Below the pieces are notes generated by a model. The model searched no databases and was not told the DNA's origin. It saw only the letters and a list, made by a program, of their open reading frames with translations. Shown here piece by piece: positions 16,966 through 61,558 of a stretch of 64,000 nucleotides of DNA; the first letter of the stretch is position 1, and the number at the start of each line of letters is the position of its first letter. The position numbers were made by a program, and so were the translations under genes. The stretch covers positions 178,374,001 to 178,438,000 of the forward strand of contig OZ024742.1 in NCBI GenBank assembly GCA_964016885.1, in the 5' to 3' direction. The stretch comes from Eledone cirrhosa. Its lineage: Eukaryota.

Positions 16966-17159
16966 AACGAAGGAAAAGTGGTAAGGAACCAGGTGGACCA
17001 TAACACACCAAAGTACTCAATACTTAGGGTAGTAGAGTGGGTAATAGGAACAAGTAAGACCCCGACGGCTGAGCTCAAGCCGTTTCGACGGCTAATTCTG
17101 GACTGAATTAGCCATCGAAACGGCTTGAGCTCAGCCGTCGGGGTCTTACTTGTTCCTAT
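16966..17159. mobile_element. Family H fold-back element
   Basis: Arms 17044-17098 and 17105-17159 plus a ~78-bp extension. Inserted in (TA)n. Confidence 0.9.
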
Positions 17160-17272
17160 ATATATATATATATATGTGTGTGTGTGTATATATACATATA
17201 TATATTTATATATATATATGTATATGTGCAAACTGAGTTTAGATGTATCTTTGCACTGCACATATAGGCTCA

Positions 17273-17359
17273 CATATCTGATGAGATGTCAAAAAGGAGT
17301 CGAGGCAGTGTCACCATCATTGTACTCTAAGCTGATCGATATCGAAACAATGTAATGTG
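17273..17359 (+). ncRNA. Type I hammerhead ribozyme, sister of the 16368-16455 copy
   Basis: Stem I catat/atgtg; ctgatga 17278-84; stem II gatgtc/gatatc; gaaa 17344-47; caatg; GUA site. Confidence 0.78.
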
Positions 17360-17561
17360 GCCGTGTAGGTAACACGGTAAAAACCTCCCAGTTCCACACT
17401 GTAAATGTGGTTGGTGTTAGGAAGGGCATCCAGCCGTAGAAAACCCGCCAGACAGTCCTATGCGAGCAAGACAACCACTCTTGCCTCAAGTGGGAAAACT
17501 CCCGTCCAAACCCATGCAAGCGTGGAAGATGGACGTTAAACGATGATGATGATGATGATGA
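17360..17561 (+). mobile_element. 3' part of SINE family C with (GAT)n tail
   Basis: ttggtgttaggaagggcatccagccgtagaaa..cccatgcaagcgtggaagatggacgttaaacgatgatgatg. Confidence 0.8.
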
Positions 17562-17617
17562 TATATATATATATATATAAATTATACAATTATCAAAGTT
17601 GTGTTCAAATCATTTAA

Positions 17618-17666
17618 TAGCTGATAATCGTTTCTTCCAAACTCTCGTTTGGTGTCATCAGAGCAT
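17618..17666 (-). ncRNA. Minimal hammerhead-like motif
   Basis: The minus strand reads gct-ctgatga-ca-ccaaac-gaga-gtttgg-aa-gaaa-cgatta-tc-agc: stem II is capped by a GNRA loop and stem I is gct/agc. Confidence 0.6.
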
Positions 17667-17767
17667 TATCAATGCTATTTCTCTTACTGGTAATAAGGTA
17701 ATTAAAAATTACTGACCCTCCTGTTTATAGTTGTTTATACTATATATATAACTATAAATAGTATTAA

Positions 17768-17838
17768 CGGGGTCGATAAAATAAAGTACCAGTAATACAC
17801 TGGGTAATTGCTGGCCTTGTGCCTAACGTAGAAACAAT
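17768..17838 (+). mobile_element. SINE family A, 3' fragment
   Basis: cggggtcgataaaataaagtaccagtaat..gccttgtgcctaacgtagaaac. Confidence 0.8.
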
Positions 17839-17891
17839 TATTATATATATATATATATGTGTATATATATATATATATATATATATATTAA

Positions 17892-18220
17892 TTTCATTTT
17901 ACGTCCGCTTTTCCCTGCTTGCAAGGGTGAGACGGGAACTGATTCTGGCTTGATTTCTACAGCTGGATGCCCTTCCTAACACCAACCTCATTTACAGTGA
18001 GTGCTGGGTGCTTTTTTTTTCAGTGGCACCTCCACGACCACTTTGCAGTGGAATGATAGGGACTCCAGTCCTATCATCTCATTTCTACAGCTGAGTAAAC
18101 TGGAGCAATGTGAAATAAAGTGTCTTGCTCAAGGAAACAACACATCACCTGGTCCAAGAATTGAACTCACAACCTTTCAATTGCAAGCCCAATGCGTTAA
18201 CCACTAAGTCATGTGCCTCC
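17892..18220 (-). mobile_element. Full-length SINE family C (tRNA head, CORE-like block, one 48-bp unit, RTE-like tail)
   Basis: Reverse complement of ggaggcacatgacttagtggttaacgc..gagttcaattc..ccttgagcaagacactttatttcac..ttggtgttaggaagggcatccagctgtagaaa..gcaagcagggaaaagcggacgtaaaatgaa. Confidence 0.85.
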
Positions 18221-18243
18221 ATATATATATATATATATATAAT

Positions 18244-18428
18244 AATTGTTTCTACTTTTGGCACAAGGCCAGCAATTACCCAGTACATTACTGGTACTTT
18301 ATTTTATCGACCCCGTAAGGATGAAAGGCAAAGTTAACCTCGGCGGGATTTGAACTCAGACCGTAAAGGGACGTAACTATGCTGGAAAGCATGGCGTCCG
18401 ACTCTCTCTACTGATACTGTCAATCCAC
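18244..18428 (-). mobile_element. SINE family A
   Basis: Full-length reverse-complement match to 2346-2530. Confidence 0.88.
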
Positions 18429-58197: not shown

Positions 58198-58750
58198 ATG
58201 CGCGGGGACATAGAAATAATCGGGCTGGATACCCAATCACGCGGTTAAACCACTGGGAGTGAAGGACCCCTAGACTTTGTCAGGGCATTCTTTTAGGTGA
58301 AGGCAACTCTGAAAACTGGGATAACTCCGACATAAAACCTGCGGCTCAATAGTTACCGATGATGTTGATCTTTTCTTCTTTTCGGGTTATAGTTACTGTC
58401 GCTCAGAGAGTGGGATTGTCTCAGTGCACAGTCTTTCCTCATTTTAAAAAATATCTTCACACACAGGCATTGCACGATAGAATTAATTAATTGTTTCTAC
58501 TTTAGGCACAAGGCCAGCAATTACCCAGTGCATTACTGGTACTTTATTTTATCGACCCCGTAAGGATGAAAGGTAAAGTCAACCTCGGCGGGATTTGAAT
58601 TCAGATCGTAAAGGGGTGTAACTATGCTGGAAAGCATGGCGTCCGACCCGCTACCGATACTGCCAATCCACGATAGAATTAATTAATAATTATTAATAAT
58701 GTTATATTGTGCAATGGCCATACTCGATAACGAGGGGGGCAGCCATCATA
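58198..58750 (+). mobile_element. Family D element (3' part) containing a nested SINE A
   Basis: Matches 60725-61080 colinearly. Confidence 0.85.
58489..58671 (-). mobile_element. SINE family A with ~19-bp target-site duplication
   Basis: cacgatagaattaattaat occurs at 58473-58491 and 58669-58687. The empty site is visible in the sister D copy at about 61000. Confidence 0.9.
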
Positions 58751-58827
58751 TATGATTGTATATATGTATGAATGTCTGATGATGATATATATGCATGTAT
58801 GTTTGTATGTATGCATGTATGATGTAT

Positions 58828-59197
58828 ATCATCATCATCATTTTACATCTGCTTTTCCCTGCTTGCAAGGGTGGGATGGGAACTGATTCTGGCTTGATTT
58901 CTACAGCTGAATGCCCTTCCTAACACCAACCTCATTTACAGTGAGTGCTTTTTTTTTCCGTTGTGCCTACATGTCCACTTTACAGTGTGGGCTGGGTTCT
59001 TTTTTGCCGTGGTACCTCCATGACCATTTTGCAGTGGAATGATAAGGACACCAGTCCTATCATCTCATTTCTACAGCTGAGTAAACTGGAGCAATGTGAA
59101 ATAAAGTGTCTTGCTCGAGGAAACAGCACATCACCCGGTCTGAGAATTGAACTCACAACCTTTCAATTGCAAGACCAATACTCTAACCACTAAGCCA
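58828..59197 (-). mobile_element. SINE family C with two 48-bp-type units
   Basis: Same as the other C copies but with an extra, slightly shortened ttacagtg..ccact unit. Confidence 0.85.
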
Positions 59198-59366
59198 TAT
59201 ATATATATATATATATATATATATATATATATATATATATATATATATATATATATATATATATATATATATATATATATATATATATATATATATATAT
59301 ATATATATATATATATATATATATATATATATATATATATATATATATATATATATATATATATAT

Positions 59367-59894
59367 ATTGATACAACCCCTAGAGGCGAACTAGCCTACA
59401 AATTTAGAAGGGCCCTAAAGAAACATAATCTCAATATTAAGATAGTAGAAAGACCTGGTACCTCCGTAAAAACACTTATTAGCAAGACATACCCGTTCCA
59501 AAGACCCTCATGTATAGATAAGAAATGTATAACCTGTAAAATAAGCCCCCATATTAACTGTAAAACTAGAAATGTAGTATATAGCATAAGATGTACTGAA
59601 GGACAATGTAGAAACAAAAATGTAGTGTACATAGGTGAGACAGCTCGTAGTATAGGGGAACGAATAAATGAACACTGGCGAGACCTCCAAGATAATAAAG
59701 AATCATCTGTGCTCTACCAACATGCTAAGATAGAACACAGGGGTAAATTAGAGAGCATAGAAATAAAAATAGAATCCACACACAAGAAAGACGCAATGTT
59801 TAGGCAAATTACAGAGGCAGTAAGCATAAAAGAATTAAAACCAAAATTAAATAGAAAATATGAGTGGAACAGCAACATCACAACTTACAATTAA
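59367..59894 (+). pseudogene. Penelope-like element, C-terminal GIY-YIG endonuclease (5'-truncated, uninterrupted frame)
   Basis: The frame is open from 59367: [79 protein letters not shown]. This is a GIY-YIG motif preceded by a Cys-rich linker. Confidence 0.9.
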
Positions 59895-60179
59895 GGACAA
59901 AATGAAAACACACACACACATCGAACAAACAACTTACAATTGAAAACACACACAAAATGAAAACACACACACACATAGAACAAACAACCAACCAACAATA
60001 AATAAATAAATAAACAAACAAATAAAAAAAAATATAAATAGAAAAATAGAAAAATGAACACAAACACACACAGACACCCGGATGTGGCGCATGCGCAAAC
60101 TGAGCACGCAACCCACACACAAACAAAATGGCGTAGGATAGAAGAAAGGAAAGGCACAGAAACGAAGAAAGAAATCCCC

Positions 60180-60224
60180 AGTCACTGAAGAGGTCACAGA
60201 GTGTGTGACGAAAGAACTATGACT
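60180..60224 (+). ncRNA. Minimal type I hammerhead ribozyme of the Penelope-like element
   Basis: agtca-ctgaaga-g-gtcaca-gagtg-tgtgac-gaaa-gaac-ta-tgact: perfect stem I (5 bp) and stem II (6 bp), vestigial stem III, CUA site with predicted cleavage after 60219. Confidence 0.82.
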
Positions 60225-60491
60225 ATATATATATAAACAACTATCTGGTTGTGGAACCAACCAACCAACCAGAAATTTATAAATTTGTAAATTTATAAAT
60301 ATTTAATAAATTAAATTGAAGTGAAAGCAACTGGTGCGTGTGTTTCTTATTGGCAACATGACCCTCCCAAAGTATAACAATATATATATATATATATATA
60401 TATATATATATATATATATATATATATATATATATATATATATATATATATATATATATATATATATATGTATGTATGTATGTATGTATGT

Positions 60492-61080
60492 ATGGTCACT
60501 CTTGAGTGCTACTGATAACATGTAACCCAGTACAACCTGTCTCATTGTTGGGTCGTCGGCGACTAAACCGGCAACCCCACCAAGTTTACTTGGTGAGGAG
60601 GGTGATTTTGGACACCCAGCAGGACAAAATACAAAACCTGACAAAGGGCGGAAGAACTCATAAGAGTCAATGGCCATCCAAAAGTGTGTAAATATGTATA
60701 TACACATGTACATATGTATGTATATGTGCGGGGACATAGAAATAGTCGGGCTGGACACCCGATCGCGCGGTTAAACCACTGGTAGTGAAGGACACCTAGC
60801 CTTTGTCAGGGCATTCTTCTAGGAGAAGGCAACTCAGGAAACTGGGATAACTACGATATAAAACCTGCGGCTCAGTAGTAACCGATGATGTTGATCTTTT
60901 CTTCTTTTCGGGTTACATCTACTGTCGCTCAGAGAGTGGGATTGGCTCAGTGCACAGTTTTTCCTCACTTTAAAAAATATCTTCACGCACAGGCATTGCA
61001 CGGTAGCATTAATTAATAATTATTAATAATGGTATATCGTGCAATGGCCATACTCGATAACGAAGGGCTAGCCATCATGT
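60492..61080 (+). mobile_element. Family D non-coding element (most complete copy), bounded by (GTAT)n
   Basis: Homologous to 2896-3412 and 58198-58750. Contains a subterminal hairpin ggcattgcacg..cgtgcaatggcc. Confidence 0.8.
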
Positions 61081-61302
61081 ATGGTATGTATGTATGGTAT
61101 GTATGTATGGATGTATGCTTGTATATATGTATGTATATCTGCCAGGAGTTGCAACCAGTTCGATCTGACGAGTTCCTCTCCATTTGGTAAGTGAATAACG
61201 TCTGAGATCTTGTCGATTTGGATTATATATGTATTTATGTATGTACGCATGTATGTATGTATGTTTTGATATATGCATGTATATATATATATATATATAT
61301 AT

Positions 61303-61558
61303 ATAGGAACGAGTAGGACCCCGACGGCTGAGCTCAAGCCGTTTCGACGGCTAATTCTGGACTATTTCTATGTCCCCGCATATATATGTATATGTGTATA
61401 TACATATTTACACACTTTAGTCCAGAATTAGCGGTCGAAACGGCTTGAGCTCAGCCGTCGGGGTCCTACTCGTTCCTATTACCCATTCTACTACCCTAAG
61501 TATTGAGTATTTTGGTGCGTTATGGTCCACCTGGTTCCTTACCACATTTCCTTTGTTA
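61303..61558. mobile_element. Family H fold-back element with a captured 53-nt loop
   Basis: Arms 61303-61364 and 61418-61479 plus a ~79-bp extension. Confidence 0.9.

Follow-up and report, generated by a model that had tools for sequence, protein, structure and literature searches.

Insertions of canonical Penelope-like elements (PLEs), as portrayed in PMC8557442 and, for Pen2a_Av of Adineta, in PMC3846280, combine inverted arms with a one-sided tail, partial tandems and microhomology, and two internal start sites of the reverse transcriptase (RT) have likewise been published for this group together with the one-sided tail (PMC11167929, PMC8557442, PMC3846280). In the in vitro system of Poseidon PAc from Anolis (PMC11167929) two internal RT start sites bound the tail, both strands of an AT-rich target are cut and extended, an uncut hammerhead RNA serves as template and a dimer is predicted; in twin priming by LINE-1 (PMC2912911) two target ends prime one RNA, giving an inverted product with junction microhomology. 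Here we describe fold-back hairpins that share observed or proposed traits with all three systems and that we call family H, from a 64,000-nt stretch of the Eledone cirrhosa assembly GCA_964016885.1 (contig OZ024742.1, positions 178,374,001 to 178,438,000 of the forward strand; hereafter the window). Truncated inverted copies, a tail on one side only, a pair of start sites and hammerheads paired on opposite strands have all been published before, and the hairpins are real and explained in outline by known PLE biology, of which they offer a sharp test. From their sequence we judge it probable (roughly 0.7) that they are the shortest insertions of a 3.57-kb PLE, each made by twin priming followed by end joining.

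Arm positions are numbered from the A of AGTCCAG (+1), and arms with a 3' end at +61 or +140 are termed S and L arms, respectively. The 17-kb copy has an L arm on the minus strand (16965..17104, alternative outer end 16966; +1 to +139/140 including the 79-nt tail) fused to (TA)n, and an S arm on the plus strand (17105..17159; +7 to +61) fused to (AT)n, with zero loop bases between them at the apex. The 23-kb copy consists of an L arm (23398..23537, minus strand, +1 to +140), a 7-nt apex insert (23538..23544) which on our reading of the sequence repeats the end of the adjacent arm, and an S arm (23545..23605, plus strand, +1 to +61); the S arms of both these copies belong to subfamily T48/T53. 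At 61 kb, an S arm of subfamily C48/C53 (61303..61363, minus strand, +1 to +61) is followed by a 55-nt apex insert with short matches to both arm ends (61364..61418) and an L arm (61419..61558, plus strand, +1 to +140). S arms terminate in TTCCTAT followed by (AT)n, and L arms, 79 nt beyond, in TTA followed by (TA)n. On re-reading, the shared design that an earlier note had ascribed to these three insertions is real, including its fixed, TA-associated 3' ends (+61 and +140, 79 nt apart) and its loops unlike between copies (0, 7 and 55 nt). An assembly artefact was considered and ruled out: the arms differ by 3.6%, are unequal in length and have both 3' ends represented in short-read contigs (two runs, one sample), in which loose ends with TA runs occur at 61479 (+61) and 61563.

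Exact-match searches of the 3.0-Gb assembly, each paired with a control pattern, returned 23,267 matches to a 29-nt core, 9,806 to the tight two-arm hairpin pattern and 21,701 to a 33-mer of the tail, against 0 for every control; because exact matches number in the thousands and controls 0, a chance origin of the hairpins is ruled out. They are a large family of about ten thousand copies or more in the genome, and a rough mark-recapture over the first 26.9 Mb of contig C1 (49 and 56 loci, 21 shared) gives ~26,000 hairpins genome-wide, likely a lower bound.

The pairing of arms is close to one of each kind. Sample 1, comprising the first 100 core matches on C1 plus all else in the fetched DNA (67 segments, 186 arms), holds 84 arms ending exactly at +140 and 70 ending exactly at +61. 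Its 75 head-to-head pairs include 64 of S with L and none of two L arms; one apparent S+S pair proved to be an L arm with a deletion, 10 pairs have a damaged or older-subfamily end, and the 36 unpaired arms in the sample include some long pairs split by divergence. Sample 2 was anchored on the tail (98 of the first 100 tail matches, at loci overlapping those of sample 1), and in it 69 of the 98 arms have a partner, which is of S type in 67 and of L type in 2. All 21 long inverted pairs, five of them common to sample 1, are S+L, as are 21 of the 22 near-full-length insertions with both ends readable by our own count (from 36 loci picked by the 5' end of their open reading frame, ORF), the remaining one being S+S. 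The two fixed 3' priming points proposed earlier are borne out by these data at +61 and +140 (64/75 pairs S+L); both sites end in TAT, and the TAT at +83 and that at +103 are unused.

A parent for these arms was reached through a fourth family H member that the earlier note had overlooked. It lies at 12547..13177 on the plus strand, is a 5'-truncated 3' end of the parent (−570 to +61), carries the whole hammerhead and showed no inverted partner; nearby, 12169-12348 holds older family H relatives, with two arms tail to tail over a TA run plus a diverged tail piece. The upstream stretch of the fourth copy led to loci with an ORF, and at one of them, the direct partial tandem L062, the arm continues into a single ORF. 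The parent unit measures ~3.57 kb with its ATG at +232, so that both arm ends lie in the 5' leader. A frame of 743 aa at L063 has 195 relatives at E <= 0.001, of which the best 120 are unnamed or hypothetical proteins at 33-52% identity. In an alignment of 101 proteins (the L063 frame and 100 relatives) RWK, DKT, YRDD, CxCX5C and VIY/YIG are kept and CxxC, E, N and C are also conserved; YRDD is invariant across all 101 sequences, the RWK position reads RWR in family H (R98 W99 K73 among the 101) and the DKT position D101 K101 T81. The CxCX5C linker and the CxxC/CxH around the conserved E and N are intact in L062 and damaged in L063. A GIY-YIG endonuclease (EN) was identified by motif (VIY...YIG...R-H) at the C-terminus and is conserved in the alignment. 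A structural model of the protein (predicted local distance difference test, pLDDT, 89) has telomerase RTs as its top Foldseek matches (E 6e-8 to 3e-7), and searches of Pfam with three ORF pieces and ten relatives, and of PDB by sequence and profile, returned nothing useful for the parent ORF.

Judged by these motifs, which also determine its clade placement, the parent is an EN+ PLE with Hydra-clade characters. It shares with that clade, as described in PMC8557442, the RWK-type motif, DKT, the CxCX5C linker, the C-terminal GIY-YIG with CxxC and CxH, the lack of a visible CCHH, a canonical-type hammerhead and insertion into (TA)n, but its ~3.57-kb unit is longer than the "generally <3 kb" (one of 3,045 bp) given there, and the hammerhead sequence listed for Hydra-1_Obim (2,507 bp) is unlike that of family H. 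The pseudo-long terminal repeat features of PLEs are present as well, namely the partial tandem (L062), inverted 5'-truncated copies and a one-sided tail, the last of 79 nt compared with 30-40 bp in canonical PLEs (PMC8557442, PMC3846280). TA runs of >=6 nt lie on both flanks in 53/64 pairs, whereas a target-site duplication (TSD) is unreadable in (TA)n and an informative match was found in 1/64 pairs. The earlier expectations of a (TA)n target, of no transposase and of an autonomous PLE sharing the hairpin terminus are all upheld, the partner found being an RT and the arm running on into an RT-EN ORF. Its suggestion of an uncatalogued non-autonomous class, in contrast, is not: long insertions follow the +61/+140 rule as well, which makes the stubs the shortest members of the insertion size series of an autonomous element. 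A pattern search for the arm-to-ORF junction matched only its source copy, most copies differing there.

The inner edge of the arms, at which the hairpins turn, is similarly constrained. In sample 1, 102 of the 150 paired arms start at −3 to +8, and the 98 tail-bearing arms of sample 2 start at −3 to +8 (56), +12 to +55 (27), −13 to −22 (4) or −34 and further upstream (11), a distribution with a trimmed tail downstream of the edge and few starts between −4 and −30. The fixed 5' end at the start motif claimed by the earlier note accordingly holds as an edge at −3 to +8 and not as a single base. Of 20 arms that match to −3, 18 run on with T, and many T runs exceed the three templated bases, a pattern that slippage or tailing at the end of a template would leave. 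Across 78 pairs both arms stop at the edge in 70 and both pass it in 8, with no mixed pair where independent stalling predicts 14.4 (P 1.3e-7); the corresponding counts in sample 2 are 62, 6 and 1. Because both arms stop there or both pass, the edge is likely the 5' end of the RNA and not a stall. The 36 copies that cross the ORF start include none that stops between −6 and +10, and 23 of them run beyond −24 into the next unit. In the chimeras L207, L232 and L223 an S arm starting at +1, +1 and −3, respectively, is joined to the ORF interior, as a jump from a template end would give; the chimeras L205, L207, L216, L223 and L232 jump to nearly the same ORF region, ~2,630-2,750 nt upstream of the next +1. 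A second edge at the hammerhead cut (+42) was not seen among the 98 tail-anchored arms, none of which starts at +41 to +44, and the long or chimeric copies include single cases that start at +41 and at +42.

The edge falls within a hammerhead whose parts are complete in the fourth copy, where we read a type I motif at 13067..13162 on the plus strand: stem I 5' strand at 13067-13071, a core with C3 and A8 at 13072-13078, stem II at 13082-13087 with 13127-13132, GAAA at 13135-13138 and stem III at 13138-13156, with a predicted cut after 13157 (+41) that is mutated in this copy. Long copies have stem I, the core at −45 to −39, stem II at −35 to −30 with +11 to +16, GAAA at +19, stem III and GUC at +39 to +41, and the minimum-energy fold of a U3.A8 copy holds the same three helices. 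Rfam gave no hammerhead match in the window and only microsatellite or hairpin look-alikes below gathering scores. Of 94 long arms, 30 have a U3.A8 core, a covariation also recorded in PMC4209133, and 64 a C3.A8 core, which would be expected to cut poorly; the commonest subfamily has mostly a C3.A8 core (positions −45, −40) and yet made insertions of more than unit length. Stubs are without the 5' half of the hammerhead (stem I 5' strand and CUGANGA core), yet span the predicted cut site, so that their template was uncut there. They are comparable as short PLE-derived hammerhead-bearing repeats to the non-long-terminal-repeat retrozymes (bioRxiv 10.64898/2026.07.22.740005), which are described as head-to-tail tandems with whole type I ribozymes, whereas the stubs are inverted and contain only the ribozyme 3' half. 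Their arms also recall the Schistosoma minimal hammerhead ribozymes (min-HHR), pairs of which are reported 100-700 bp apart on opposite strands (PMC4209133).

Upstream of the edge is a candidate core promoter, which in the fourth copy would occupy 13086..13120 on the plus strand, with a TATA-like stretch at −31 (13086-13095) and an initiator-like TTAGTC at the hairpin edge (13115-13120). In family H at large, +1 lies in TTAGTC or TCAGTC, and the TATA-like stretch is found at −29 or −31; these labels, and those for family F2 below, follow what we take to be the initiator and TATA consensus. A cap-derived G before +1 seemed enriched and was dropped as a candidate, as the T/T parents carry C and another subfamily seemingly G at −1. 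A bacterial promoter scan, with a model unsuited to this genome, found nothing.

A blind hairpin scan over 0.99 Mb of fetched DNA revealed sister families with the same architecture. Family F2 (loci L238-L287; 27,663 core matches genome-wide) has a parent ORF at L269:2180-4546 that is 36% identical to that of family H, and by its sequence is a second Hydra-like PLE, with a TATA box. F2 pairs are S+L in 30 of 33 cases, the other 3 holding a cut or deleted L arm, and its hammerhead is whole and just inside the stub, with a variable loop II. The turning point of F2, CC-A-GATT, precedes its CUGAUGA core and in most long copies lies 30 nt downstream of TATAAATA; that of F3 (5 pairs) is likewise upstream of the core. 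The earlier statement that the fold-backs always turn inside hammerhead stem II consequently stands for family H, whose edge lies in loop II, and not for F2 and F3. The tails of family H and F2 both carry GTATTGAGTAC, a candidate binding site. In family F4 (L077:8834-8933, L078:5199-5326) the S+L hairpins have A runs as apices and show no hammerhead motif, and an F2 hairpin at L278 has a (TA)n run as apex insert.

Junctions between arms point to repeated, independent formation. Of the junctions in 117 pairs, 45 show an overlap and 15 are blunt, and the inserted bases number 1-7 in 40 and >=8 in 17. Among short pairs 93/99 junctions are distinct, and the commonest junction is found in either mirror orientation and in two different subfamilies, which supports the earlier view that hairpins are rebuilt at each insertion. 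Apex inserts are repeats of the element's own end, A or T runs, or flanking DNA. Compared with 25 control loci, the longest exact flank match was 27 nt for the 61-kb insert (control maximum 21), 20 for L019 (18) and 16 for L028 (10). The 61-kb insert was likely copied from host DNA ~620 bp to its left, its likely template at 60681..60747 (minus strand) being 85% identical over 67 nt with a 27-nt exact stretch and the middle of the insert differing from this donor. This donor belongs to a repeat, a 28-mer of which has 1,250 exact genome matches; a copy would lie within 650 bp by chance with a probability of ~5e-4 by our arithmetic, even spread assumed. Templated inserts of this kind are a product of polymerase-theta end joining.

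The two arms of a hairpin are also closely matched in origin. Their haplotypes agree in 55/61 pairs, compared with a mean of 18.9 and a maximum of 32 in 20,000 shuffles, and partner arms differ by 3.6% as against 7.8% between loci; subfamilies C/C and T/G are similar in age (2.3% and 2.5%). The variants previously taken as private to both arms of a copy turn out to be subfamily markers, in that, of 78 shared letters that depart from the majority, 74 are found again at 3 to 25 loci. In the six long pairs with an overlap of >790 nt (L063, L064, L065, L066, L074, L080) partners share pair-only variants, and the partner is the closest arm in all comparisons for four and in 13/18 and 16/18 for the other two; short overlaps are uninformative for this comparison. 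Of 17 long pairs with a contiguous junction the L arm is longer in 12 and the S arm reaches 376-3,269 nt beyond the L arm in 5, and an L arm is not copyable from an S arm because the latter is without the tail. All three subfamily sites differ between the partners of one pair, and possibly of a second. Each hairpin likely reflects two separate copying events from one source.

We posit that the protein binds its own RNA leader and cuts both strands of (TA)n, whereupon the two 3' target ends would prime reverse transcription on one RNA, at +61 and at +140, the terminal TAT of both sites providing three bases able to pair with the primer. Both complementary DNAs (cDNAs) would run off the 5' end of the RNA, likely its transcription start (−3 to +1), and end-joining repair, presumably polymerase-theta-like, would then connect their free ends head to head. 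The same RNA molecule may serve both strands, perhaps through an asymmetric protein dimer spanning the 79-nt tail. Long insertions (~10% of arms) would derive from another form of the RNA, uninterrupted through the hammerhead, which could be a circle, a multimer made by read-through or the product of a jump over the −3 to +41 terminal repeat, circular RNAs having been proposed in PMC4209133; stubs would be dead ends that do not copy themselves. Compared with Poseidon PAc, whose start sites are given in PMC11167929 as inside the ORF and without target homology, the family H sites are in the 5' leader, each with TAT at its end. LINE-1 uses one primer at the 3' tail and a second at an internal position that varies (PMC2912911), whereas in family H neither site varies, both are internal and the two copies have the same 60 nt in common. 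A more specific version, in which asymmetric double priming is obligatory, with a dimer on one RNA and its active sites at the two tail ends so that each insertion would receive one arm with and one without the tail, ~90% of products being retrovirus-like strong-stop stubs from the translated linear mRNA and productive copies arising via hammerhead-continuous RNA (a circle, or a jump over the 44-nt repeat), is offered tentatively, as rather less probable than not. If true, it would mean that hairpins map the PLE transcription start and the productive fraction directly from the genome.

The same arms could in principle arise by fold-back, a +140-primed cDNA turning at the RNA end and copying itself to +61, as inverted PLE junctions are read in PMC3846280. 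This would suit arms that are nearly always of one subfamily, the several apex inserts that repeat the element's own end, a 17-nt snap-back at L218 and the nesting of the +61 arm within the +140 arm in 12/17 long pairs. We nevertheless regard it as unlikely, and the family H data disfavour that self-priming reading: the +61 arm is far longer in 5/17 long pairs, among 64 pairs it starts >3 nt upstream of its partner in 21 and downstream in 19, mixed-subfamily pairs exist, and flank-derived apex inserts imply two free ends. Fold-back also gives no reason for a fixed +61 stop, which matches an independent RT start site in PMC11167929. Twin priming could also be kept with the edge read as a processed RNA 5' end, produced at an intron 3' end, by trans-splicing or by nuclease cleavage of loop II. 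At the edge, both family H (TTTTCATTTAG) and F2 (T-rich ...CCCAG) do resemble splice acceptors, and the D. virilis Penelope intron ends at the helix I 5' end, like the F2 edge (PMC4209133). Arms retain the AG, however, often together with TTT in front of it, no common upstream exon is joined at the apex, and F2 has a textbook TATA box 30 nt upstream of its edge, so that a processed end seems to us improbable.

Stalling of the RT at hammerhead stem II or loop II would place the turning point where family H has it, inside loop II and adjoining a possible stem II extension, but it predicts 14 mixed pairs of 78 where 0 were seen (1/69 in sample 2), 0/36 copies crossing a whole unit stop at the edge, and F2 and F3 turn upstream of the core; we consider it very unlikely. 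Least credible, and close to negligible, is that a preformed hairpin, a miniature inverted-repeat transposable element (MITE) or non-autonomous retroelement, was itself amplified. The MITE-like shape, TA target and high copy number would fit, as would the recurrence of some junctions (8 of the first 50 tight hairpins). A MITE has equal terminal inverted repeats and a fixed interior as its unit, whereas family H has arms of +61 and +140 and 93/99 distinct junctions, the recurrent one in both orientations and two subfamilies; the long insertions of the autonomous element share the same ends, and no fixed TSD is readable (informative match 1/64).

Twin priming followed by end joining remains our preferred explanation, and several observations weigh against it. 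On pairing, sample 2 includes 2 L+L pairs and 1 mixed-length pair among 69, 29/98 tail-bearing arms are without a detectable partner, and L218 is an S+S insertion with the above snap-back. In PMC11167929 the start sites did not differ between the two strands, which would not in itself yield one-of-each pairing. All-or-none passing of the edge is also not absolute: loci picked for a long arm often have a short partner, whose start is mostly at +28 to +126, as a block close to the S site would give. The placing of the edge at a transcription start (−3 to +1) is indirect: a good TATA-like stretch is confined to two subfamilies (TATTTAAA at −29, in 12/13 T/G and T/T arms), that of the commonest being weak, and the stretch overlaps stem II, G or C at −1 in some parents means that a cap-derived G is not demonstrable, and in F2 the spacing from TATAAATA to AG is 24 nt in one long copy and 33 nt in two. 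Later asymmetric palindrome deletion could mimic non-nested arms, and partial gene conversion could add to arm agreement.

Other repeats share the window with family H. A 66-bp tandem array at 34760-55588 (315.6 copies, 96% matches) fills one third of it, and further arrays at 5409-7394, 25508-25947 and 31451-33533 include one of 65 bp (30 copies) and 48-bp ones on opposite strands. Another fold-back family with a CTGATGA...GAAA motif is present at 16276-16401 and 17240-17345, with one inverted pair in the window, and more short hairpins, of unassigned families, adjoin TA or host DNA at 16611-16693 and 24261-24339.

Relative to the canonical PLEs as described in these sources, family H is distinguished by the ~90% of pairs that are ~200-bp stubs ending at one edge and by one-of-each pairing of ~97%. 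Near-strict pairing, an all-or-none edge and start-site stubs, or stubs as the principal product, were not found for PLEs in the literature searched, the scope of which excluded subscription journals, Repbase reports and some supplements; the passages of PMC13282606 drawn on here give Penelope and MITE counts only. As to the origin of the inverted ends and one-sided tail of PLEs, self-priming has been inferred (PMC3846280) and two start sites have been demonstrated in vitro (PMC11167929). The E. cirrhosa genome holds at least 9,806, and roughly ~26,000, insertion records for family H, plus those of its sister families, and these yield sharp predictions for the PLE in vitro system: one-of-each pairing, the same RNA for both strands and run-off at the start site. 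Inverted-repeat finders would class such stubs as MITEs, and their transcripts, if made, would fold into ~60-bp near-perfect duplexes that may be substrates for RNA editing or silencing.

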